Source of the DNA: Amoebidium appalachense
Taxonomy: Eukaryota > Protista > Ichthyosporea
DNA: 64,000 nt
Reading direction: 5' to 3'
NCBI GenBank assembly: GCA_963693365.1
Contig: CAVNZM010000015.1
Span: forward strand, 3,162,001-3,226,000
Of the stretch, positions 3,006 through 63,783 are shown piece after piece. Under the pieces are notes generated by a model. That model searched no databases, was not told the origin of the DNA, and saw only the letters and a program-made list of their open reading frames with translations. Made by a program: the position numbers and the translations under genes. Position 1 is the first letter of the stretch, and each line of letters begins with the position of its first letter.

Positions 3006-3249
3006 TGTTAATCTTGTACAGATTGAACCTTGCATGTGTGGTTGGTTATTTGTGGGGGAAGCCCGATGATAGATGTCCTTGCATACCTCAATGCTATGAG
3101 AAGCATACTGTAATTAAAAGAAAAGCAGCACAATCAATGATGATAGCATCATGTCTAGCCACATGTACTTCCTCCTCTCTCCCCCCCCCCCCTCTCCCCC
3201 CTCCCTCCCCCCTCCCCCCTTTATCCCCCCCCCCCCCCCCCCCCCCCGG

Positions 3250-3613
3250 GCCGCCTCCCCCCTCTCCCCGGTCCCTGCTCCGTCCGTCCCTCGATGCGGA
3301 GGCTCCCTCCCCCCCCAGGCCCGGCTGTACCCGACAATAAACAATCATCGTTTCACCGGAGTCATCATAGTAAAGTTTACAAGTTAACTTGTTCTGTATT
3401 TAGTACGATGGTTGAGGCCGGGGGGGAAGGGGGGGGGGGGGGGAACAGCCATCGTACTAAATACAGAACGGTTAACTTGTAAACTTTACTAATATGATGA
3501 CTCCGGTGAAATGATGATTGTTTATTGTCGGGTACAGCCGGGCCTGGGGGGGGAAGGGAGCCTCCGCATCGAGGGACGGACGGAGCAGGGACCGGGGAGA
3601 GGGGGGAGGCGGC
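3250..3613. mobile_element. Foldback/MITE-like inverted repeat: ~163-bp arms (3250-3412, 3449-3613), G-rich spacer, flanked by a C-run on the left and a G-run on the right
   Basis: The left arm (GTCCCTGCTCCGTCCGTCCCTCGATGCGGAGGCTCC...GTATTTAGTACGATGG) is the reverse complement of the right arm with a few mismatches. The ORF track shows mirrored peptides on both strands. Confidence 0.8.
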
Positions 3614-4947
3614 GGCGGGGGGGGGGAGGGGGGGGGGGGGGGGGGGGGGGGAGGGGGGGGGAGGGGGGAGGGAGGGGGGGGAGGGGGGGGGGGGGGTTTG
3701 CCGGCATTCTGCGAAGTAGGGTAAAGAGGAGGGAGGGAAGTAGGGTGGCGAGGAGGGGAAGGGTTTAGGGGTTTTTCCGGGGGGGGGGGGGGGGGGGGGG
3801 GGGGGAAGACCAAAAGGAGGGATGCCGAATCGGCTATTACAGAAATAATAGCAAAATTTTAATAAACGGGTGGCAAGTTAAGAGCAGCAGCGAGGTTTAT
3901 GTGTTGCGTGTGGGAACGGTTTGCATGTCTGCCTAAGCAACTAAGCAAGGAAGACAGAGAGGGGGGCATGTGGGGAGCAACTCACACTTTCAGGCACACT
4001 GTCATACCAAAACCATCACAACACACTACGCACAAACCAAACACCCGATATGCGATCACATGCGTGTACACCGCAAAAGACACTCGCACACCCATTTACA
4101 CACCACACACAACACCAAAACAACCTTTCACACACACCACACTGCGCTCAAACAACCACATACAACATTAAGCACCCATTCATATATACACCACACACAC
4201 ACACGAACACCCAAACACCCAATGGCATTCACACACTTAACACACAAAAGGCCCCTTTGATCCGTGATTTCAAACATTTATTGAAACGTTTTTTGAACCC
4301 CCACTGACTGCAAGTTGCAGAATATTTTTTTTTTTTTTTTTTTTTTAAGGTGCGATTGGATATTCCATATTTATCTATAGGTATACATACACTGCATGCA
4401 CATACGCGTGGCCAATGATCACTTTCAACATCATAAAAGATAATCGAAAGAAAATGGGTATCTACGGCGGTCCAGCCGCCCCGTGAAAATTTGAAAATTT
4501 CAACATGCATAGTTATCCCAAAACACCAATGATACTGAACACTTCAAAATCTATTAGCAGACTCCGACTCTAAAATTCCACGAGCACACTTTTAGGGATT
4601 GTTATACGGCAACCTGTTGAATCTGTCCACACCCAACTTGATCCAAAAAAAAATAAAAAATAAAAAATAAAAAATAAAATAAAAGAAAAGAAAAAGAAAG
4701 AAAGAACCCCCCCCCCCCCCCCCCCCCCCGACGCTCCACAACAAACAACAAAAAAGTTACTATTTGGTGTGGCTAGATATGCACGTGTGCTTGTTCCATA
4801 CATGTATATGTATGTATGCACATTCCACACAACAAAGTTTGTGTTTTGATCCAGAGATGTAACTCGTGGGTGGCCACGCCCATTTTACATTCACACCACG
4901 AGACAGGAGATGTGTGTGGTTCTGGGTTCCCCACAGCCCGGGAGGGA

Positions 4948-6132: not shown

Positions 6133-6245
6133 ATGTATGCGTTAGAGGGTTGGAAATATGGAGGAGACAACAAAAAGCAACAGCAAAAACGTTACAAAAA
6201 TGAGAAGTGTGCAGGCAGAAGGCACTTGTACGGAGCCCATCATCA

Positions 6246-6304
<59 letters not shown>

Positions 6305-7113: not shown

Positions 7114-7516
7114 GGGGAGGGGGGATGTATGCATTAAAGGGTCGAAAATGACTCCGAAGGACAACATTTAAAACGCCACAAAATTCACAATATTTAACCC
7201 TAGGGTTAACATAAGCCCAGAATGGATCAAACATAGTTGATAAACATAGACAGGGTACACTCACCGGAACGAGATGTAGTCGCTGTCGTTTGCAAAAGCC
7301 ATCACACGGGTGCTGCTTTCTTTGGGCACCGGGTACAGGTACTTGAGAATGTTCTGCACCTGCACGTGCACGGAGAGTGAGCATGGGTAATCACACGTGG
7401 GAGAAAAAAAAACTGCTCCCGACCTCCCCCCCTCCCCCTTTTACGCAAAGAAAACAAAAATTTGCATACGAAGAAGTGAGCATGGGTAATGACACGTGGG
7501 AATAAAAAAAATTTCC

Positions 7517-7555
<39 letters not shown>

Positions 7556-7723
7556 CTCATACGTAAACAAAACACAAATCTGCGCAAAGTGACACAGAAC
7601 CACACCACCCCACCCATTGTGGAAATACGCACAGAAGATGCAAACACTAATCTACATGCCAGACACCAACACCCGATTTCAAACATATTGAGCATACTAC
7701 ACTCATCCTCTCTACTTTGACAT

Positions 7724-7757
<34 letters not shown>

Positions 7758-8295
7758 TTTCCACAAACACCCACACAATCACATCCACGCCCACGTACAA
7801 ATACACACGTACCCTATTTCCCAGTGTGGTAGTGAAGTTATTGAATATCAGGTGTGGGTACTGCTCAGACATGGTGCTAGTGAACTCCTTCACGTCGTGT
7901 CTCATCACAACATTGGACAGCGCAAAGTAGGCGGTGGGCCCATACGGTAGATGGCACACGATAAGACCGTCTGTGGCAAGTGGTTGGTTAATTCTAAAAA
8001 TCATTGAATGTTAAGTACACAGTAGACCCGTACGGTAGATGGTACACGTGGTACACGTAAGACCATCTGTGGCAATTGGTTGGTTATATTTTTAAAACAT
8101 TGAATGAAAAGTAGGCGGTGGGCCCATAAGGTAGATGGGCACACGATAAGACCGTGTGCGACAAACGGTTGGTTAAAACTTTAAATCATTCTGATACTTC
8201 AACACTATCTATCCTTCCCTCTCCCTTCCCCCACCTCCCTCCACGTTCCCTCCCCTCTTTTCCTTCTCCCTCTCCCTCCCTCCCCACCCTCCCCC

Positions 8296-8326
<31 letters not shown>

Positions 8327-8864
8327 GCACACACAAAAAAAAATAAATAAATGAAATAAAAAATAACACCACATGCCTGCGCACAACACGGGCACACAAG
8401 TGCGAATGCACATATCCCTCCCCCCCCCCCCCCCCCCCTCCCCCTTTCCCCTCCCCCCCCCCCCCCCAACCAACCAACCCACCACAACTTTTCAACCCCC
8501 CCCTCCCCACCCCCACCCAAAAAAGGCAACACCCCCCAACCCTTAACCACACATAACCAATAATAACAAAATCATAACTATAACGATAGTGGTAGCAACA
8601 ACAACAGCAACAACATTTACAACAATAATAAATAAAATAACAGTACCTGGCTCCCCCCTGTGCTCGTGCAATATCAGCAGGTCCGTGATGTCATTGGACC
8701 TGCATGTGTCTACAAGCTCTTTCACAACAAAGTTGCCGCGGTTGAGTCTTTGCGCATTGGGGATAAGAAGCTTAAACTCCTGGGGGGGGGGGGGGGGGGG
8801 GGGATGGGGGAAAAGGCGGGGAAAATAAGGGGAACACGAGAAGAAACCAACGGGAATAGTGGCG

Positions 8865-8904
<40 letters not shown>

Positions 8905-9259
8905 CGCGCGCGGGTGTGTGTGTGTGCGCGCGCGTGGGAGGAGAAGGAGGAAGGGGTTGTTTGGTTGGTTAGAATGTGTCATAGACTACGAAGTACTCAT
9001 TCATGACGAAAAACACATAAGATTAGAGTGCAAAGCACACACAAACAATATGCAGAATAAGCAGAGCCCATCCTCAGTGGGCGCCAAATTATCTAGAATA
9101 CCGGGGAAAGGAAGAAAGGCAAGAGAACAAGCAGGGGAGAGTGGAAGGAGGGACCTGTTGATGGGGCAGGGGGTGGGAGGAGGGGGGTGAGAGGCATCGA
9201 CAGCTGTTGCTCCTCTCATCTCCCCATCTCCCTACCTAAGTCTCTCCCCCCCCCTCCCC

Positions 9260-9290
<31 letters not shown>

Positions 9291-10301
9291 ACCCTCTCCC
9301 TCCCTCCTTTTCCCCCCTCACTCCCTCCACACATACAGGTACCATTTTGTCTCTCCAGTCACCCACCTTTCCCTTTCCTTCCAAATACCTTTCAACTTCA
9401 GAGCTAGACAATCAATACTCTGACGACCATTTGCCAAAAACGAAAAAAAAAACGCGGAGATGTAGATTAAAACATACGTGTGTGTCCTTTTTTTTTTTTT
9501 TTTTTGTGTGTGTTTGGGGGGGGGGGGGGGGGGGGGGGGAGGGGGGGAGGGGAGAGAGAAGAGAGGAGACAGACGGGGAAGGGGGGAGGGGGGGGGGGAG
9601 GGGGGGGGGGGGGGGAACGGACGGGGGGAGGGAGGAAAAGGAGGGAGGGAGGGGCATGGGGGGGGGAGGGGGAGGGGGGGGGGGGGGGGGGGGGGAGGAT
9701 GTATGCGTTAGAGGGTCGGAAATATGGAGGAGACAACAAAGAGCAACAACAAAACGTCACAAAAGTGGGAAACCCAAAATCAAACAATTTACGCGTGCAG
9801 ACAGAAGACACTTGAACAGAGCCTGTCATCAGGGGAGTTCATATGCCTCAACAAAAGCATGGGTTTCGACTCTTTGACCACTCGCGCTTTGACCACTCGC
9901 GCGTGGTTCCCAACCCATACTTTGCTTCAACAGCAACAGGCGAGTCCAATGGGGGGGAGGGGGGGTGGGGAATGAAAAGAGAGAGAGGAAGAGAAAGAGA
10001 GGAGGGATGAGAGAGAAGGGGGAAGGGGGAAGGGGGAAGGGAGGGGGGAGGGAGGGAGGGGGGGAGAGGGAGGAAAGGGGGGCGAGTCGGAAGAGGAGGG
10101 GAGAAAGAGAGTGGGGGAAAGAGAGAAACAGGGGGGGGGGGGGGGGGGGGGGGTGGGAATAGTACTTTTGCAAACTGGGCCAGACGGGAGGATGGGTCAC
10201 GGGCAGTGGTGATGACCACCTTGGGGTCCCTCACACCGGCAAAGGCATACTCGTCATCAATATGGTCACGTACCACTGTGTGTGTGTGTGTGTGTGTGTG
10301 T

Positions 10302-10338
<37 letters not shown>

Positions 10339-10487
10339 TGTGTGTGGGTGTTTGTGTGTGTATGTGTGTGCGTGTACGTGTGTGTCTGTGTGTGTATGTG
10401 GGTGTGGGTGTGTGTGTGGGGGGGGTGGGGAGGGGGAGGAGGGGAATACGTCTCTCTCTCTCTGTGTGTGTATGTATGTCTGTGTGT

Positions 10488-10532
<45 letters not shown>

Positions 10533-10688
10533 TGTGTGTGTGTGTGTGTGTACGTGTGTGGTGGGTGTTTGTGTGTGTGTGTGTGTGTATGTGGGTGTGG
10601 GTGTGTGTGTGTGTGGGGGGGGGGGTGGGAAGGGGAGGAGGGGAATACGTCTCTGTGTGTGCATGTGTGCATGTGTGCATGAGTGTGT

Positions 10689-10734
<46 letters not shown>

Positions 10735-11423
10735 ACGCGCACATGTTTGTGTGTGTATGTGTGTGTGTGTGTGAGGCGCGGGGGGGAGGTAGGGTTAGAA
10801 TACGATACCAGACAACGGGGGGCTTTAGCAATTTGAGTCAATGCACAAGGGAAGGTGTGGGGGTCGGATCGTCTCCCCAGCCCTTGTGATCACATGTCTG
10901 CTTTAATCACGCCAGCCCCCCCTCCCCCCCGCCCCCCCCCCCCCCCCTCCCTCCCCCCCTCCCCCCCCCCCCCCCCCCCCCCTTCCCTGCGATCACTCCC
11001 TACACTCACTACTACTGAACAACATCCCCCCTCCCTCCCTCCCCAAAAAGGCGGGTAGGGGTGGTGGGGATGGGAAGTAAAAAGAGTCACACAAACTGAC
11101 CACACCTGCCCTGCAGTTATTTGCCTGCTTGAAACCAATCAATTTCCTGAAAAGTGATGGCAAAAAAAAAAAAAAAAAAAAAAAAAAGAGGGCGAAGAAA
11201 AACAAAAAAGAGCAAAGAGAAAGCGGTAGAGAACAGTGCGTGTGGTGGTTGTGGTGGCGGCGGCAGCGGTGGTGGTGGTGGTGGTGCGGAGGGCGGGGGA
11301 GGGGGGGGAGGGGGGAATATAAACCTTCAGTGTTTATGTCTTCCAACTCGATTTCATGTCTCAGCGATGACTCCTCTTTTCTCAACTCCGTAGGGATGGG
11401 CTTGCCGGCTGTGGTGTGTGTGA

Positions 11424-11700: not shown

Positions 11701-13431
11701 AAATGCACTGTTAAGCACGAAGTACACAGAAACAAAGGACGGATGGATGGGAAAGAGAAGTGGAGAACAGACGGGAGCAGAGAGAGAGGATAGTGGCGAG
11801 GAAGCACCGGGTTGGATTCAAAGAATAGGTGGGTGGGTAAGGGAGTTGTTGAATTTGTTGTAGAGAACACAGTACACAATAATAACGGACAACATAATGC
11901 AGAGTGCAAAGCAAACATCAGGAGCATTCACAGGAAGCAGAGCCCGTCGTCGGGTGGTGGTGGTGGTGGTGGTGGTGGGGGGGGGGGGGGGGGGGGGGGC
12001 AGGGCCTTAAGTCATCCACAAAACTCGAGTTTCATCCCATTCACCTTGCAAACAAATGTAACTCTCTGAACTCTGGGGCGGGGAGAGAGGGGGAATGGAG
12101 GGGGGGGGGGGGGGGGGGGGAAGGGTTGTATGTATTTGAGGGTTGGCAACATGGAGGAGACACTAAAGGACAAAATACAAGGGGGGGGGGGGAACAGGGT
12201 GGGTAAGGCGGGGATAATGGGAAAACTCTAATAGCCTCCTTCAGTTTGCACTCTCTCCGAGGAAAACAACATGAAACAAACAAAACCATGTCTACGGTCC
12301 AGAGAAAGAAGTACATAATTAATTAGTATTAATAAAGTTCACCTTTAAAGCAGATTAAAAAATTAAAATTAATAATTATCATAAAACTCACCCTTAATTG
12401 CCTCCTTCAGCTTGCGCTTTCTCTCTGCCGTCTGCTTCTCCTTCTCCTCCAGAGCTTTCCGGTAGAGATACTCCTTGCGCAGACGCGCCTGCCGTCTGAT
12501 CTGTGGCCAATCAACTACGTTAGTGTGTGCGAGCTGTAGCCAATGAAAAGGGGTAATGAGTGTCATCTGTGGCCAATCAAATACGGTAGTGTGTACTGCT
12601 TTTTGTGTGCAAGGCCCGAAATCCTACCCAACTTGCAAGCACAAAAGGGTTAAGAGGTGGGGGTGGGAGCGGGGGAGAGGGAGGGGGGGGGGGGGGGGGG
12701 GGAGGGGGGGCATCCCTCTAAAGAATTGTTGACATAGAAGGAAAGACAATGAAACAACCGGTTGAGAAGGCAGAACAAATACCAAAGACATTTTGGCTTT
12801 GGGGGGACAGGCAACAAACAGAACAAAAGAAAGACTTATAATAAGCAAACATTTTGAACAAGCACGTGCACACCTGGACAGTCGCATTGTCGCGTACTTA
12901 TGATGGATAAGAAAAACATAGAGAGGGAAGGGGCAGAGGGTGTTTGAATGCGTCATACAGTTCGAAGTACACATGAACAACGGATAACACGATGCAGAGT
13001 GCAAGCCATACATAAAGAGTATGCATAATAAGCAGAGCCCATCCACAGGGGGAGCCCACGACATCCACAGTACCCGTGTTTAGACCCATTCACCTCGGGG
13101 AGGGGGAGGGGGGAGGGAGGGGTAACGGGGGAGGAGAGGAAAAAAGGTAAAAACGGAAGTCGGGGTGTCCAGGAAGTAATCCAGCCACATCGGCGGAGAA
13201 GGGGGCTGGGGGTTTGAATGCGGAACACATTGGGGGGGAGGGCGGGGGGAGGGGGAGGGGAGACAGGTGGGTAAGGCAGGGGGGGTAAAGAGTGGGGACA
13301 TGGGCAAGATAGGGAATGCACGACAGAAACGGAAGCATGGGGGGGAGGGGGGGGGGGGGGGGGGGGGACAGAACATAACAGTGGAGCAAGGAGCCGAATG
13401 GTTAAGGAGGGTGAAAAACCGTGGAGGGGGG

Positions 13432-13487
<56 letters not shown>

Positions 13488-13510
13488 CACGCGCGTGTGT
13501 GTCGGGGGAA

Positions 13511-13542
<32 letters not shown>

Positions 13543-14342
13543 TTGAATGCGTCAAAAAGTACGAAGTACACAAGAACAAACGGATAACACGATGCAGAAT
13601 GCAAGCCATACATAAAGAGTATGCATAATAAGCAGAGCCCATCCTCAGGGGGGGCCCACGTCATCCACAGTACCCGAGTTTCGACCTATTCCCCTCGTTA
13701 ACGAAACCCAACTCAGATACTGTTTCACTTGAACATGAGTAGGTCACCCGTCTTGATCAGAGACGAGCAGGGTTGCTTATGCAGGCAAGGGCAGTGGGAA
13801 AGGCCGGGGGTTAAAGTTGCAGCAGTAAGCAGAAGCAAGAAAAATATAGATAGGAACTCAGGAGACGGGGCTTCTAGGAAGCTCCCCCGTCGATACCTAA
13901 GTCGATACTTCCCTGGCTAACATACTACACCAGCTGAAAAGAATTAAGTCCCGAAGGCCACAGAATTCGTAATCAGAGGGGAAAATATGAGATTTGACCC
14001 ACGCCGCAGGGTAGTAACACGCTTACTAGGGCGGAACTTTATCGTCTTCGAACGGAAAGCTATGCCCCCGGATGTCAGCCGGAAATATGGTATCACCCAT
14101 TGCTTTGGGCTTGAAAAAAGCCAAACCGATAGTCCGAGTTATGTTACGCCGGCGGGTAACATGCCGCATGGGTTCCAAGGGAGCTGTCGCCAACAGAGCG
14201 GTGTGTGCATGCGTGCGCGTAACGCAATGTGTGAAGTGTGTCTATAGCTATGAAAGGGGGTATGCAGAAGTGGACAGATGAAGTGTGTGGAGAGAAAAAC
14301 AGTAAGAAGAAAAGTAGACACCGGTATGTGCAACCCCGCACA

Positions 14343-15382: not shown

Positions 15383-18223
15383 AGGGGAAGGGGGGGGGAG
15401 AGGGGGGAGAGAGGGGGAGAGGGAGAGAGAGAGAGAGGGAGGGAGAGAACGAGAGAGAACGAAAGAGAGCGAGAGAGGGAGACAGAGAGAGAGAGAGGGA
15501 GGGAGAGAGAGGGAGAGGGAGAGAGAGAGGGAGAGAGAGAGGGAGGGGGGGGGAGGGGGGGGGGGGGGGAGGTGTAGGGGCTGGTAGGGGGGGAGGGGGG
15601 GGGGGGGTTTGAATGCGGAACACAGTACGAAGTACGCATAGACGATGAGAAGCATGATGCAGGACACATGCAAAGGCAAACATTCAAGTATGCAGCATCA
15701 GCCATGCGCACAGTATGCGTCATAAGCAGAGCCCATCCTCAGGGAGGGCCCAAGTCATCAATTGCGTCTGAGTTTCGACCCGGGGAGGGGGGGGGGGGGG
15801 GGGGGGGAACCGGGATAGAGTGGGGGACTAGGGAGTGTTGATCTTTTTAGTGATGATGGAGAGTATGTGAGAGGAGTGAACGCCACGGTATATGTGCGGG
15901 TGTGTGGCGAGAAAGCTGTGCATTTTGTGGTGCAAGAGTCTAAACGAGTAGCCTTTGTTAAGCAATGTTTTAGCAAGTCGTGCAGTGCATGTGGTGAATG
16001 CAGCAAGTGTGGAGCATTTGCGCTGGTAGCTATGCATTTGACTTGTCATGATGCCGTATTTTGCAGTGCGGGAGATGAATGAGTCGTGATGTGGGAAACG
16101 AACGATGTCTAGTGTATTGAACGTGGGTGTGTCGAGCTTGTTGTAGATGGTTGTGTGAATGCCGTGATTAGTGCAGGTGATATGCAAGTCGAGGTAGGGG
16201 ACAGAGGGGGAGGAACCGGCAGGGTTGAGTTGAAGGCTGGTCTTGGGATATAGACCGAAATCACAATCTTCTAAATAGAGGTGGGAGAGAATGCGAGGAT
16301 TATGAAGGGAGATCAAATCATCTATGTAGCGGCGAGTAAACTGAAAATCTACCAAGACATCAATGCGTTCGTGTGCAATAAGCTTGCGAACAAAATCCAA
16401 CTCATAAGTAAAGAGATAGAAATTAGCCAAGAAAACAGCACAGTTTGTACCCATGGGGATACCAATGTCCTGTTTGTAGAGGGTATCGCCAAACACAACA
16501 TATATGTTATCTACGAGGAAACATAGAAAATCCACAAGCTGTGCCTTAGAGAGATGTAGAGAGTGTTCTTTAGGCTCAAAGGAATCATCCTGGGAATCAT
16601 CATCTACACGATCCACCCAGGACAACGTGGAGCCGGTTTTCTTAATAAACATGTGTGGTTTGCGAGCGTCCGTGCATTTTTTGACAAATATTGCGTCAAT
16701 CAGTGTAGTGAGGCGAGCTTTCAAATCATGCAAGTCAATCTTGGTGTAGAGTGTGGAAAAATCAAACACAGACACGGGCGTATTTTCGTGTTGGCGTGTG
16801 GTACGGTTAAGGGCGTTGATTGTGTGTGTGAGTGCGGTGCTATCCGTGAGAATCCAAGAGCTAGTGTTGTGTGGCAGGTGGGGTTTGACAACATCACACC
16901 ACATACGTTCGACATCAGGGGAGACGAACTTAAACACACTAGTGAGAAGGCGGGAGAGAGGTTCAAGTGATGTGGCAGAGGAGTTGGCAATGAAACGGAA
17001 GGTGGGTGGTGTTTTGTGCATTTTAACTATGGCCTGAAATGTGGGCAAGCGTGCAGTGCGACGTCCTGGTGTGCCTTTTATGTCATGTGTTTTGAGAAAT
17101 GCAAGGTGTTGTGCAACAATGTCTTTTGGTGCAGTGTTGCAGACGGTGTATGTTGCGGCAGGTGCATGCAGTTCGGCTGTAATGCTGCTAACGTAGTGTT
17201 TTTTGCAGACGATCACGAACGTGTTGCTAGCTTTATCCATTGTGGTGACTACGAAACGTTTTTGGAAGCGACGCAGTAGAAGCACAGAAGCTTGTGGTAC
17301 GGTGTGTGTGTTGGGTGCGTGTTATGCATATGGCAGGAAGGGGCGACACTTAGTAAAGACGGCGGCTGCCCACGGATTCAAAGAGGGATAAGCTGCCATA
17401 CCAAGATCGTACATCTTGTTACAGAAACTTTGCAACGCCTGTGTCAATAAATTGCTACAGGTGGTGTCCTCCGTCTGCTCGACCTGCATTCGGAACTTGG
17501 TTCCAAAATGCATGAGCGATGCAAAGTCTGCGGGCAGGCCGGGAATGTCTAAGCGCGATGTAAGCACGTGTCCGTGTTGTGGGTGTACGTATGGCGCATA
17601 GTGCGGGTCGTTGCAAGGGCAGGGTTGTGCATGGATGTTTGCTATGGTGTCCTGCGGGAGTCGTGCGGTGTGTTTGCAGTTGATAGTGGTGTAGCCCAGG
17701 GTAGACACATATTTCCACACAGCAGAGATACGGAATTTACGCATTTCAAGCGGCAGGAGAGCATGTATTTCTTTGTCTTTGATGATGCGTTGCAAAGGGA
17801 TTCTATCGAGCCCGGAGTTATGAAACACAGACACCAACATCACGGGGGGGGGGGGGGGGTTACGAAGAAAGGCAAAGAACACCACCAGAAGTGATGAATA
17901 CAGGGGATGGGGAAACGTGACTTGTGGGATGAAACTCACGGCCATGTGCTATCCAATATAACGAGAGGAAAATGTAATTGTCTGCACCCAGATAGGGGAA
18001 TGTGTGGGAGGGAAAGTAGAGTAGAAGGGACGTGTGGTTGTGTAAGTACGGCAAAGGGGAAAAAAGAACAGTGGCGAAGAGGGAGGGGGAAAGGGGGGGG
18101 GGGGGGGGGGGGGGAGGGGGGGGGGGGGGGGGTGGAGCAGAAAGCAAGAGAGATAGAGAGGAAGGAGGACAAGTGGAAAGGATAGACAAGGAGAGAGCGG
18201 GAGCGGGGAACGAGGAGGGAGGG

Positions 18224-20794: not shown

Positions 20795-21932
20795 CACTGT
20801 CATGCACACGTGCACACAAATGAACCCACTCAGATAAAAAGGAAACAGCTGATCGACGGGCTTGAAACGAAAACGCCAACGCAAATCGCGGAAGCGGCAA
20901 TAGCAAGTAGATACAGGCGCTTTTGATTGGATAGTAGCTTTTCAGAGCTGGCAGGGTGCGTTGTCGACCAATGGAAAAAGGTTCTCATTTGGCGAATTAG
21001 GTCAAGATGTTGCCACACATGTACATGTGTAGGCCGGTAACATGCTTGCCACACAGGAGGTTCTTTCAATGTTGCTTTATCTGTATACTACTATTATAAC
21101 TCACTATATGTACGGCTGCTCGTAGTTCAACATGAATTGTAAATCGGCTACATTGGCCTATAAATAAAGGCGTGAGCTCCCGCACCAGCTGTGCACAGGG
21201 ACGAAGGGGTGGCACCCGCCAATGTAGTATTCACGCTAAACTCTTTAGTATAGATCTGATGACTAAACGGGGCCCATGGCCCAGGATTGATTTGAGATTC
21301 CAGTGTATATATCAGTCATGTGCATTTGGTGGCGCAAATAAAGTACATACATTATTTTATTGAATACAGTACATTGTTTTTGAGTCACACTGTACATTTG
21401 TGACGCTCTTGAGCTATTTTTATAATTGCATACCAACAATGGCCAAAATTTACATTTTCTGCATTTTGGTTGTGGCACTTGGAACCCCTTTACCTTGATC
21501 AAGATTTTATTGGTTTCAAGTCACACATTTATAAATTCGTACTTCTGCAGCCGGCTTGGTTGAAAGCAGACGGCATACGCATCCCGTTTACAAACAGGAA
21601 AGGAACTGAAACAAGAGCTTTCCCACTTTCTTTTTATTATTATTATTTTGCATGTAGAGAATATTAATTTCGGATTTCGCTAAGGCGTCACACCAAACGA
21701 TTAGTTGACATCACAGCATTCAACGCATCCCCCCGAATGCATCAGAAGCCGAATGCGCCTGGCCAATGTTTCAAGTACGAGTATGGTAAGCATCTACCAC
21801 GCAAGTCCGGGGAGAAAAAAGACCATACATTGAGTGGGAAATCACAATTTCATACCATAGCTAGGTATTGAGGTTAGCATCTTTTACTCAAGCTTGTGCA
21901 TCACTCCTGTCGGCCGAACGAGACGCTGGGAA

Positions 21933-26868
<4,936 letters not shown>

Positions 26869-37116: not shown

Positions 37117-56717
<19,601 letters not shown>

Positions 56718-58831: not shown

Positions 58832-60537
58832 ATGTCTGATGAACTTGATAACATGGTAAGCACACATCACACCATTATCATGTTTATGGGTTACAGACGA
58901 AGGATGGACATGGTGTGAAGGAAGGACCGAGGAGATCAGAGAAACTTAATAGTGATGGTCGAGGGGGGAAAAGTAGCCTGCGAAAACTTGGGTCGAAGGG
59001 TGACCTGGAGCAAGGAAGGAGGGTCCATGTTTATAGTCGCGCGAGTCCTAAGTAATTCAGAGACAAAACATGGCTGCCAAATGACTTGGAGAACGGACGG
59101 TAACAAAAGTGAAGGCGGCGTGGTGATCAAAGAAGCTGAACGACGTGAAGGGGTTAAGAACACAAGCGACGGGTGCTCTTGGAGGGAAAGCGTGGGAAAG
59201 AGTCAGGTTGGCTAAAAGCCCTTGCTTGTAGTTACAGGAGGACGGAAGCGTTGACAGAGAAATTTGCCAGAAGACGTTGATCGCGACTTAGGGGTCGTAG
59301 GTGAAGGAGACGGGTAGCTGGGCAGGAGGTGTACAGGATTCGTATTGGTGTAGTGAGAAAGGGAACTGGTGTTACCTTTTTATGGGTTCAGCGAGGGGTA
59401 AGGATTAAGGGGCTGAGCGGGGGGGGGGGGGGGGGGGGGTTTACGGTTCTGGTTTTATTAACTGGGTTATTAGGTGGATTGCTTTTTTGGTGTCGTGCAC
59501 TGAGGAGGGCAGGGTTGCGGTGATGTTGTACACTATATGATGCTTTTCGGTATTGAAGGGAAATTTGGGTGCAGCAGCAGGGGTCTGAGACCTTCAACGA
59601 GGGCGAGACCAAGCAGGAGGCTGTCGAGCCTGCTGAGCCTGCCGGGGAGGAAACCAACCAGGAAAATGGTGCCCCCAGCGAACAGGAAGGTATGTGTTCT
59701 GGCTTGAGAGATCATGAAACACATCGCCAGGCCATTCATGAGGCAGTGAGCAGGGTGATTTTGTCGGGTCGTATTTCGAGTTAAGTTCGTTGTTTGGGGG
59801 GCGCTTTCGTTTCTTTTTTGTGTAGCAGGGTAAGAATGCTTTTTAAACGTTTCCACAAGTCATGCCAGCAGTACGCACCATTGTTACCCACCCCTGTGTT
59901 TCTTTGACGTACTAGATTGCACCACACTTAACGTTGTCGTGCCTCCAAATTATCACTCTCCCATTTCCCTTCTGAACATAGCTTTTGTCTGCACCACAAG
60001 GTAAATATTCAGTATCCCCGAATCATTGGACATCCACAGTCCCGCATCATTGGACATCCACAGTCCCGCGTCAAGCATCATAGAGAGGGAGACGGGAGGG
60101 GGGTGGGGGGGAGAGAGGGAGGGATTAACGGGAAGGGGGGAGGAGATGGGGGACTTTGGGGGGGGGGGTGGGGGATGGGGGAGAAGGAGGAGGGAGGGCA
60201 ATGGGGGAGCTGCTTTGAAAGGAGATGGGGTAGCTGCGAAGGGGACTATTATTTTTCTAAGCACAAACACGGTTGTGTTAGTAACGCTCTGCTGCAAATC
60301 AGGCGGTGCGGTGAAGCGGGCACACGAGGAGGACGATGGTGCCCAGGCGAAGTCTGAGGCTGACGGTGCTGAGCCCCCTGCAAAAAGGCAGAACACCGGG
60401 TAGGTGGCCCCACATATTCACGTGCAATGTTTTTTTTTGTTGTTGTTTTGCCTTCCCCCCCCCCCCCCCTCCCTCCCTCCCTCCCTCCCTCTCCTTCCTC
60501 CCAAAGGTTGGGAGGGCATGTTTTTGTGTGTGTGTGT

Positions 60538-60578
<41 letters not shown>

Positions 60579-61308
60579 ACGGGTCGATGGGACAAACCTG
60601 GTACATCATTTTGTTGACCATTTGTGGAAACCGGGGAAGACGCGGGGGGGGGGGGGGGGGAGGAGGGACGGGGGGGTTGTCTTGCTTAGGAATGTTGCGC
60701 ATACGAAGTAGGGAGAATAAAAGAAATCAACCGAGCATTGGGGAGGGGAGGGGGGGCAAAGGGGGGTTCTTTGTGGCACCTTTTTGTTTGTTTTGTTTTT
60801 TGTTTTTTTTTGGGGGGGGGGGGGGGGGGTCAAGAGGCATATAATGCTAAGCAGAAGTGCACGTGCATGTGTTGGCTTAGACGGTAAAGGGAAGGCTCTT
60901 TGTACATCTTTTTGATATTGGAAACGACCCAAGCATTAACCTCATTATCTGTGCGCAGGGATTCGGGGGCTGAAAACACAGAGCCCGAGGAGACCCGTGT
61001 CATTCTGGTCCCGTCAAACCTTGGTGGGTGAAATGTGTGTTTTTTTAAAAAAAAATATTTTTTCTTTTTTTTTGGGGGGGGGGGGGGGGGGGGGGGAGGG
61101 TCTTGTTCTTTTCCTTGCCTTTGCCTTTGTGGAAAGGTTTAAATAAGCCTTCCTAGAGAGTGTTTTTCCCTCAGAGATAGTGCCGGTCACGTCTTTTGGG
61201 CTTGCGTGAAATTCCAGCGGTTTGCGCAACCTCTGTTTCTTCCAACATCACATCTCCTAAATGAAAACTAAATTAGTAGAAGTAACACCTAAACACACAT
61301 GGACACAT

Positions 61309-61341
<33 letters not shown>

Positions 61342-61949
61342 TCCCACGTGGAATATGCAACCTTTACTCACCTTTTCTTCTGCAGCTGGCTACATCATTG
61401 GCAGCAAGGGAGACACCATTCGCCGGTTGGAGGCCAAGTCAGGTGCCAAAATCAAGGTGGCCCAAGGTACGTGCCCCCCCCCCCCCCCCCCCCCCTCCGG
61501 CCCGCCCCGTGTAACTCAAGGGCAAGAAGGGGGAATGTGGGTCGGACAGGCAGGGGTTGTGTGTGTGTGTGTGTGTGTATTGATGGGGGGGAGGGGTTTA
61601 GGGATGATCGGATGATTCAGGCTCATAGACGAACAAGTTGACGTCGTTTTTGCGTTATATTGACGGTAGACAAAATGGCTGGCTTTGCCTTTGTATGGTG
61701 CTACCTCCATCTTAAAAGTTGCGCTATTTCCATATAAGGGAATTCTAGAGAAATTCTAAAGATATGCCGACGTAAACATTCAGACTGTTTTGTTGACTTT
61801 GAATTATTTCATCCGCAGGCAGCGACAGCCCGGAGAGGGAGGTGACGATCAGCGGGTCGGCAGCGGCTGTAGAGCAGGGGATGAAGGCTGTGAACGAGGT
61901 TATCGACACGGAGGTGGGTGTGGGTGGGTGGGTGGGTGTTTTGTTTTTT

Positions 61950-61997
<48 letters not shown>

Positions 61998-62422
61998 CTG
62001 CGTGTGTGGGTGTGCGTGTGTGCGGGCGTGGGTGTTTGTGGGAGTGCATGTGGGTGTCGGGGGGAGGGGAAGGGGTGGAGGAGTGTGTGTATGTGTGCAT
62101 TTGTGTGCATGTGGGTGTCGGTGCATGGGTGTTTGAGGGCGTACATGTGTGTGTGTGGTTGTGCTCGGCAGGGGGGGGAGGGGGGGGGCCTGTGTGTGTG
62201 GGTGTGTATGTGCATGTGTGTGGGTGTTGGTGCAGGGGTGCATGGGTGCATGGGCGGCTGGGGGAAGGAGAGGTGTGTCAGGAGGAATAGGGGGTGGAGG
62301 GGAGGGGATGTAAGAGAGGCACGAGCTAATGGCAAAGGGGTTAAGGCACCCTAAAGAGTAGTTCTAAATTCGAGATTTTCCAATTGTGATAGTGTAGTAT
62401 TGTTTTTAAATGGCATTCTAAC

Positions 62423-62468
<46 letters not shown>

Positions 62469-63507
62469 GGGGGGGGGGGGAGGAGGGGGGGTTGTTTGTT
62501 TGTTTGCTTGTTTTTTGTTTTCTTCCATCTCATTTCGTTTATTGGTTTCTTTTTTTTTTTTTTTTCTCCATGCAGAGGGAGAGGGCCAAAGCACGTGAGG
62601 AGGATGAGAAAGTAGTCAAAGACCGCATTGAATTCTTGTGCCCCCGTACCCGTGTGGGCCTGATCATCGGCAGGGGGGGGGAGAAGATTAGAGAACTGCA
62701 GGAAAAGAGCGGCGCTAAAATCCAGGTGGGGTTTGTGTTTGGCCCTCTCAGTCGATTTCTTTTTTTATTATTTTTTTTATATTTTTTTTAACCCTTTTCT
62801 TTCTCCCAACGGCACCATATGCATTATATGCACTATATGCCTGTTTGTGTCTTTCAGGCTTTCCCCTCCCCCTGTCTGTATCCATATCTCTTCCTGTCCT
62901 TTCTGTCCCCTTCTCTCTCTCTCTCTCTCTTTCTCCCTCTCTGTGTGTGTATGTGTCTCAAATCCCCTCTCTCGCCTCTCCCGCGCTTACCTTGCTCACT
63001 TTCTCTCACTTCCGCCCTCTCTCAGTCACCCGGCTCTTCTCTCTTGATAGTTTCCTTTTTCTCCCCAACGAAACCACACATGTGGTCCCACCTCCCATCC
63101 TAAAACGGCCTCTTTTTTCAACTAACACCGAGCACCCTTCCGTTTCTGCTTGCGCAACAACGCCACATTCACTTGTCCTTTTTGTAAATTTACCGAAAGT
63201 CCCGCAAATTTTTCAGGTGGTGCAAGATGGGATCCCCCCCTATGCCGAGGGCAAGCCCGTGCTTCTGACGGGTACCCGTGAGTCTGTGGAGACTGCGCGC
63301 AACATGATCCGAGATGTGATTGGTGACGGCTTCATCCTGCCCTCCAACTACAGCCTGACCGTGTTCAACAACCCCGATGGAACGAGTATGTGTTTGAATG
63401 TGTGGGTGGGTGTTTTGGCGGCGTGGTATTTGGTATTTGGTTCGGGTGTTTTTTTTGTTTGTTTCTTGTTTCTTGTTTTTTTTTTTTTTCCCTTCTTGAA
63501 GAGGAAG

Positions 63508-63558
<51 letters not shown>

Positions 63559-63783
63559 CGCACGCGCTTGATGGTGGTGGTGGTGGCCGGGGGGGGGGGG
63601 GGGGGGGTTTGAGAAGTGGTCGGGGATGATGGTGGGGTGTTTTTCTTTTTGATGCTTAACTATGGGGGGGGGGGGGGGGGGGGGGGGGGAAGTCAGCAAG
63701 ACTTCGAACACCAAATTGCCCTTCTGGTTAGTACCTTGATTTTCTCTCTATTTAAATTTTGGTGGTGGTGGTGGTTGTTGTTG

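Follow-up and report, generated by a model that had tools for sequence, protein, structure and literature searches.

Do the repeats on the minus strand of this Amoebidium appalachense contig encode a self-cleaving RNA and, if so, how is it wired? The window (the whole stretch of 64,000 nucleotides that was analysed) contains four copies, from three repeat families (A, B and C), in which the minus strand reads GUU, then C-GAAA-C, then CUGANGA. These four (A1, A2, B1 and C1) are listed with the further copies of the families.

13622..13783, minus strand: copy A1, complete domain of the candidate split-core hammerhead
50618..50747, minus strand: copy A2, 5′-truncated in the 3′ arm of hairpin P1, with core and stems I-III intact
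54099..54265, minus strand: copy A3, 5′-truncated, starting just before block G
12930..13097, minus strand: copy A4, a decayed and truncated copy carrying mutations in both core motifs
44656..44827, minus strand: copy B1, complete domain
15587..15781, minus strand: copy B2, its 5′ truncation at block G lying in a C-run some 45 nt past the stop codon of a reverse transcriptase (RT)
9818..9950, minus strand: copy C1, 5′-truncated at P1, diverged, with a private 15-nt duplication
6134..6249, minus strand: copy C2, starting at the C-tract before CUGAUGA

In the numbering of hammerhead ribozymes, H17 lies at 13710 (A1), 50706 (A2), 44747 (B1) and 9912 (C1); G12 at 13682, 50678, 44715 and 9867; C3 at 13648, 50644, 44681 and 9832; and G10.1 at 13745 (A1), 44783 (B1) and 9946 (C1). 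The C3-A9 segment is CUGAGGA in families A and B and CUGAUGA in family C. C11.1-GAAA-C15.2 is invariant in the six copies containing it, and N7 is the sole variable core position, as the initial annotation had stated, with C3-U4-G5-A6-N7-G8-A9 and G12-A13-A14-A15.1 otherwise the same in 6/6 copies. The NUH triplet is GUU in all four copies reaching it, with a U16.1-A15.1 pair opening stem III. Copy B1 has three extra nucleotides before G10.1 which are absent from the other B copies. The motifs, their order and their coordinates were correctly given at the outset, as judged by a check of the sequence, by descriptor matches, and by the frequency of CGAAAC-N15-45-CUGANGA, which occurs six times, always on the minus strand, where 0.11 occurrences are expected. 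The scrambled-order hammerhead motif in three repeat families is real.

Families A (followed on A1) and C (followed on C1) are very high-copy in contigs of public runs, their summed depth reaching approximately 1e6 and 1e5, respectively; many single contigs have a depth of about 10, and the sum is not a copy number. With 10,636 contigs placed on A1, none of the 15 listed variants with a frequency of 3% or more falls within CUGAGGA, GAAA or GUU. At the position of C1, other genomic copies have UG following A9, and G and C at 9841 and 9836, respectively, in nearly all of their depth. Contigs on 13621-13697 from two runs (X10 and X14) show another subfamily, in which stem I and the interaction strands are changed.

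Could these stems be chance pairing within GC-rich repeats? A descriptor that requires all three stems and places the 10.x strand upstream matches the minus strand of the 64-kb window four times (A1, A2, B1 and C1) and the plus strand not at all, and has no match in 300 block-shuffled windows. When the core letters were held fixed, 28, 12, 38 and 25 of 4000 shuffles per copy passed the descriptor, and none of the 16,000 reached the observed score. Only four window copies have all three stems, these are mutually related, and the descriptor was composed after the copies had been seen; hence it measures chance pairing and not generality. Against chance stand both sets of shuffles and the presence of the identical layout in unrelated sequences (see below). 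We regard this explanation as largely refuted already, and highly improbable. A family-specific pattern was also sought in viral contigs; its two loci are one sequence, lying inside an apparent reading frame and lacking the stems, and were put down to chance.

Among the matches listed by Rfam for the window there is no hammerhead. On 13500-14300 the best score of the type I hammerhead model is 14.2 bits (E 4.8), against a cut-off of 34, which agrees with the initial expectation that standard descriptors miss this arrangement. Single-strand folding is blind to pseudoknots, and recovers stem III, P0, P1 or the interaction helix only partly.

The elements of copy A1, from 5′ to 3′ on the minus strand, are the P0 5′ strands, P1, 10.x, an interaction strand, block S, P5, block G, the second interaction strand, 2.x-CUGAGGA, a U, and the P0 3′ strands. 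Their coordinates are as follows.

13774..13780, minus strand: 5′ strand of the P0 outer helix, pairing with 13628-13634 over 7 bp
13770..13772, minus strand: 5′ strand (CCC) of the P0 inner helix, pairing with GGG at 13638-13640
13746..13768, minus strand: hairpin P1, 8 bp, ending directly before G10.1
13740..13745, minus strand: 5′ strand of stem II (10.x), pairing with 13683-13688
13730..13739, minus strand: 5′ strand of the stem I-II interaction helix, pairing with 13655-13663 over 7 bp, a bulge and 2 bp
13707..13723, minus strand: block S, comprising the stem III 5′ strand (13723-13711), GUU, and the stem I 5′ strand GGG (13709-13707)
13693..13706, minus strand: hairpin P5 in the linker between blocks S and G, with a self-complementary centre
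13667..13688, minus strand: block G, comprising the 11.x strand, G12-A13-A14-A15.1 (13682-13679) and the stem III 3′ strand
13642..13663, minus strand: half-block C, comprising the interaction-helix 3′ strand, the stem I 3′ strand (13651-13649) and CUGAGGA (13648-13642)

Across the four copies (A1, A2, B1, C1) stem III has 13, 10, 9 and 11 bp, and the upstream stem II has 6, 6, 5 and 5 bp and is closed by G10.1-C11.1 next to G12. Its pairs are G-C, A-U, C-G, C-G, U-A in family A; G-C, A-U, U-G, C-G, C-G in B1; and G-C, A-U, C-G, U-A, C-G in C1, so that two positions are compensated across the families (C-G/U-A and U-A/C-G). A9 is preceded, at a distance of 104-121 nt, by the covarying 10.x strand, which also precedes the cut-site block. 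The initial annotation had written the third segment as 2-CUGANGA-10, a formula that does not match the helix it listed, 10.x being some 100-120 nt upstream of A9. Paired variants at 13741/13687 were considered as compensation inside family A and rejected; they carry the same letters as family B and may not be linked to each other, and so they were not counted as independent of B.

Stem I is 3 bp long in families A and C, 4 bp in B. A 4-bp stem I had been claimed for C as well; its fourth pair, A-U, is private to C1, and since other copies have C at 9836 the stem of family C is GGG/CCC, as in A. Of the covariation claimed at the outset, stem II has two compensated positions, and that of stem I comes, within the window, from family B alone. 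The interaction helix (5-9 bp; 44778-44770 with 44695-44687 in B1) is in register in A, B and family C, with both-sided changes at two positions, and the one mismatch of C1 is repaired at 9841 in nearly all other C copies.

At the junction of A1 the inner GGG of P0 begins one nucleotide after A9, and U13769 faces U13641. The outer helix of P0 has 8 bp in B1, and an A-U for G-C change is implied in family C. The loop of P1 is a 6-nt palindrome, UGAUCA in A and B and UGGCCA in family C, changed yet kept; family C also has the upstream hairpin P1, lost in C1, as a loose contig end behind 9948 shows. The linker between blocks S and G measures 18-35 nt and holds hairpin P5, which is self-complementary in A1, B1 and C1 alike. 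In B1 the linker hairpin is taken in part from a dimer fold; a palindrome is by construction more stable when folded as a dimer, so the dimer fold of P5 only suggests pairing.

Which element carries these repeats? The window contains one long coding sequence of the appropriate kind.

15828..17842, minus strand: Naiad/Chlamys-type RT open reading frame, 5′-truncated at a C-run, with CxC, GTKF, DKA and YIDD motifs
13865..13887, minus strand: small hairpin upstream in element A, matching at 19/20 nt a hairpin that closely follows the RT end in a metagenome locus (L012)

The translation of the RT reads CPC, with one in-frame stop at 17322-17324; it has no C-terminal GIY-YIG endonuclease and ends where the RT/thumb of its homologues ends, these including Mesostigma and Pinctada proteins. 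A CxC before the RT and the change of DKG to DKA are described as marks of Naiad/Chlamys (Craig 2021, PMC8557442). Further marks of the clade are an insertion-in-fingers domain and an N-terminal GIY-YIG, accompanied by CCHH in Naiad but not in Chlamys, which would lie beyond the point where this copy is truncated. A quick tree of 57 rows places the RT outside a 100%-supported clade of 26 rows with the Pinctada protein, on an unresolved long branch among Chlamys-like rows that include Mesostigma. The window RT has the marks of the Naiad/Chlamys clade and looks Chlamys-like. The window copies end in C-runs, a preference stated for many Chlamys families (PMC8557442), and truncated B copies flank the RT piece across C-runs (18389-18265 and 15781-15587). 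No copy in the 64-kb window joins the RT to a whole ribozyme domain, and A1 and B1, which have no upstream reading frame, look non-autonomous. The tie between the repeats and Naiad/Chlamys-type Penelope-like elements drawn in the initial annotation is supported by the RT marks, the C-runs and the hairpin shared with L012, and the link of RT reading frame to ribozyme repeat is indirect.

The hairpin GGGGAGCU-loop-AGCCC, which lies upstream of the ribozyme domain in element A, is seen 9-110 nt after the RT end in seven metagenome loci (L007, L008, L010, L011, L012, L017 and L021), as found with a loose pattern of this form, adjusted post hoc. The non-coding 5′ bodies of elements A (13790-14240, minus strand) and B (44830-44950, minus strand) differ. 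That of A folds strongly, and neither a tRNA head nor an Rfam match was found in it.

The surroundings are intron-rich host genes (7441-10837 and 48900-55700, minus strand; 21861-26868 and 59900-63700, plus strand), which include Brix-domain and PPR pieces and a MARK-like kinase; the gene at 59900-63700 is, by eye, of the KH RNA-binding type. Many repeat copies lie in host introns. An exon of a host kinase has 81% identity to a EukProt protein labelled "Ihof", which we take to be Ichthyophonus, and at most 63% to the top animal and fungal matches, which makes an ichthyosporean host likely. A 520-bp imperfect palindrome at 3171-3691 (86% self-match) is possibly a MITE or foldback element.

The same layout was read by eye in at least 10 of the 54 Naiad consensi in the accessible portion of File S5 of Craig 2021 (PMC8557442): Bfor, one Clytia entry, Amil, Aacu, Anas, 2_Movir, Plae, one crustacean entry, Obim and Ovul, some of the names being assigned from neighbouring headers and the order of the metadata. 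Allowing for the close relationship among the three Acropora entries and between the two octopus entries, these amount to about seven independent cases in five animal phyla. Within that portion of the file, the carriers have P0 right after A9, P1 right before G10.1, the upstream stem II, the interaction helix, and stems I and III. Their helix sequences are unrelated, G10.1-C11.1 is kept, and the motif lies 3′ of the reading frame wherever its position is visible. The sequence following A9 pairs upstream of P1 and not with 11.x. Stem I of Naiad_Bfor has only 2 bp. Among the carriers, only Bfor, Clytia and 2_Movir have a palindromic P1 loop. The available parts of the same paper note halves of the hammerhead core in Naiad 3′ UTRs, some of them 35-50 nt apart, under the labels "HHR_core" and "HHR_half_core". 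Naiad_Ovul (half_core), Naiad_Bfor and Naiad-2_Movir (both core) carry the split layout, to which those parts assign no structure, and Naiad_Plae, the three Acropora entries and Naiad_Obim carry it with no HHR note there.

The split layout is not clade-wide. Nematode Naiads, read by eye in the same part of File S5, have the canonical block order, and no such motif was seen at the 3′ ends of Chlamys-1_meVir and Chlamys-1_cAtm as given there. The initial annotation had proposed that this could be the missing processing ribozyme of the clade, in which canonical hammerheads are reported to be lacking; the layout in at least 10/54 Naiad consensi speaks for that, and the nematode elements and the many relatives without the motif restrict it. 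It had also proposed scanning relatives with a descriptor in the swapped order. In its strict form this gave no sense-strand match and one weak antisense match among 80 metagenome RT loci, 58 of which have at least 400 nt downstream. With the G-C requirement dropped, seven RT loci of one family show the S-G-C order, 213-565 nt past the RT match; in these, position 11.1 is A and the closing helix is another one.

Several side observations concern these relatives. Nine loci (L007, L008, L011, L012, L015, L017, L021, L051 and L079) form one family with S-G-C order 3′ of the RT and A at 11.1; they have a 7-bp helix closing CUGAUGA and a long-range helix, the stem II partner being either the upstream strand or the linker, and a second CUGAGGA follows about 160 nt later. 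Locus L013 has two CUGACGA repeats and a helix after A9, has no intact GAAA, and was not counted. Several arthropod Naiad ends (File S5, near parts 16-19) show, by eye, other hammerhead block arrangements; in some a helix comes directly after A9, and in one block C seems to be intact. A different motif, structured and conserved, CGGGUG ... GCAG ... GCUYAC ... CACCUG with an inner hairpin, is found 80-200 nt after the RT match in 11/80 loci (L018, L019, L020, L028, L039, L050, L057, L059, L060, L066 and L082); a twelfth regular-expression match, L005, is apparently due to chance. It is also visible in hemichordate Naiad consensi within the part of File S5 at hand. Rfam gave no match to it in the two loci scanned and no ribozyme at the gathering score in 20 RT loci. 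This motif may be a 3′ signal, or another ribozyme, of Naiads lacking the hammerhead.

How might the split core work? The sequence, the block order, the pairing potential and the covariation are established here, and the feature very probably works like a hammerhead. More specifically, we put at about 80% the probability that the repeats form a self-cleaving split-core hammerhead with a four-way junction, likely serving Naiad/Chlamys-type Penelope-like retroelements. The core would be opened between A9 and G10.1, and the four-way junction would close the gap by means of the long-range helix P0 and the hairpin P1: P0, starting just after A9, would stack on P1, ending just before G10.1, and together they would hold A9 beside the G10.1-C11.1 pair, substituting for the missing bond. 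The metal site formed by the A9 phosphate and G10.1 does not depend on a bond linking the two, and in a viroid hammerhead they are separated by an additional A. That A9 is not joined to 10.1 had been observed at the outset and listed as a weak point; it is rather the new feature of the motif, accounted for by P0, P1 and the stem I-II helix, which had gone unnoticed there.

The interaction helix would tie stem I to stem II as it does in type SGC (HRIMA-1 and variants), the experimentally validated natural ribozymes composed of blocks S, G and C (Eckert 2023, PMC10085705). By analogy, the RNA would be cut 3′ of GUU, which in A1 is predicted to fall between 13710 and 13709, about 165 nt before the 3′ end of the element, to leave a 2′,3′-cyclic phosphate and a 5′-OH. 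Such a cut could release, from read-through or tandem transcripts, unit-length templates for the RT of the element, and cutting of element transcripts to unit length is the most likely role; transcript trimming has been hypothesised for the hammerheads of other Penelope-like elements (PMC8557442). More speculatively, the palindromic loops of P1 and P5 would let two RNAs pair, and this may stabilise the 3-bp stem I.

Another reading of stem II takes the RNA as an ordinary type SGC hammerhead, in which GGCUC(U), located 2 nt after A9, supplies the active stem II, and in which the upstream strand acts as a decoy that delays activity until refolding. GGCUC is indeed invariant in 10/10 aligned copies; GGCUCU pairs with 11.x over 6 bp in B1 and C1, with downstream/upstream duplex energies of -5.6/-6.1 and -7.1/-6.4 kcal/mol, respectively; and insertions of one or two nucleotides are allowed in block C according to the sections of PMC10085705 available. 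In family A, however, only 4 bp can form (-2.3 kcal/mol downstream vs -7.3 upstream), and GGCUC, which never varies, can show no compensated change. P0 accounts for its G residues, the interaction helix goes with the upstream strand, and the sequence after A9 does not pair with 11.x in the Naiad consensi inspected in the accessible part of File S5. As it fails in the largest family, lacks compensation and is inapplicable to the Naiad examples, this reading is ranked low, and we consider it unlikely. A switch using both stem II partners is conceivable.

It has also to be asked whether the RNA still cuts. A fold derived from a hammerhead could have been kept as a binding or pairing signal for the RT, and the copy ends in the window bear no trace of a cut: no window copy starts at the predicted site, and neither a depth step nor a pile-up of ends was seen there in contigs, which cannot show RNA ends. 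Copy ends had been entertained as evidence of cleavage and were rejected as such; four of the truncated copies begin 12-22 nt past the predicted cut and two begin at P1, and since all six starts lie at the 3′ arms of hairpins, and others at a C-tract, stalling or microhomology explains them. The shortness of stem I (3 bp in A and family C), which counts against the split-core model, the palindromic loops suggestive of RNA-RNA pairing, and the many Naiad/Chlamys relatives that spread without the motif also fit a non-cutting fold. On the other hand, the helices turn over from family to family and phylum to phylum, yet every catalytic position is retained, as are the NUH triplet and G10.1-C11.1; only N7 and H17 vary, as in active hammerheads. 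Loss of cleavage appears unlikely, a little less plausible still than the decoy, and the self-cleaving split-core hammerhead is the reading we prefer.

This reading bears on a point left open in the consulted part of Craig 2021 (PMC8557442), namely whether Naiad/Chlamys elements spread without a ribozyme: judging from sequence, at least some of them carry a candidate ribozyme missed by descriptors. The window also places the Naiad/Chlamys clade in an ichthyosporean, a lineage absent from the main text of PMC8557442 as far as it was available, and supplies a protist host for a layout otherwise read in animal Naiad consensi. We consider it fairly probable, with less confidence than for the self-cleaving hammerhead itself, that this is an active fourth non-circular hammerhead arrangement, in which the chain enters at A9/G10.1 and a four-way junction completes the core, and that it serves as the processing ribozyme in much of the N-terminal-endonuclease Penelope clade, in hosts ranging from one unicellular relative of animals to ctenophores, cnidarians, acanthocephalans, crustaceans and octopuses, possibly pairing transcripts through palindromic loops.

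Among known systems, the type I hammerheads of Penelope-like elements and retrozymes likewise lie in a terminal repeat, on the sense strand, and are proposed to cut tandem precursors (PMC8557442; bioRxiv 10.64898/2026.07.22.740005, in the parts available); unlike the window copies, they have the canonical C-G-S order and a three-way junction. Natural hammerheads tolerate some changes in the core (Perreault 2011, PMC3088659); the insertions in the portion of that work consulted are of one or two nucleotides (A6a, U13a, 2a/2b), whereas in the window whole helices enter at A9/G10.1.

The closest relative is type SGC, with which the window copies have in common the S-G-C order, the core nucleotides, the pseudoknot stems I and II, and the helix joining the sequence 5′ of 2.x to that 3′ of 10.x. 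The available sections of Eckert 2023 (PMC10085705) report that SGC ribozymes cleave at the predicted, analogous site and depend on a helix between stems I and II, assume that CUGAnGA and its adjacent strands cannot be interrupted, and state that no SGC RNA was detected when known organisms' genomes were considered. The description of the motif in the initial annotation as a non-circularly arranged, pseudoknotted hammerhead is supported (stems, order and descriptor matches agree); the segment swap it had taken as new is the S-G-C order already published as type SGC. A publication of the split wiring, with 10.x upstream of everything else, was not found in a search largely outside the subscription journals. 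The window copies differ from SGC in that block C is split, with 10.x and an interaction strand at the 5′ end and P0 and P1 entering between A9 and G10.1; in an S-G linker of 18-35 nt with a hairpin (about 3 nt in SGC); and in their occurrence within high-copy retroelements of a eukaryotic genome. In type SGC 10.x follows CUGAnGA within 2 nt; here it lies 104-121 nt upstream of A9, and with block C not intact the copies are not type SGC as defined. Joining A9 to G10.1 would give the SGC cyclic order, and the window copies thus represent a further permutation, with its ends inside block C. If the ribozyme is as proposed, non-circularly permuted ribozymes would move from anonymous environmental RNA into high-copy eukaryotic retroelements. 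The novelty is the predicted wiring, in which the 5′ strand of stem II comes first and the chain is broken between A9 and G10.1; because this layout breaks the assumption of an uninterruptible CUGAnGA block, it widens the space in which natural hammerheads may be sought.
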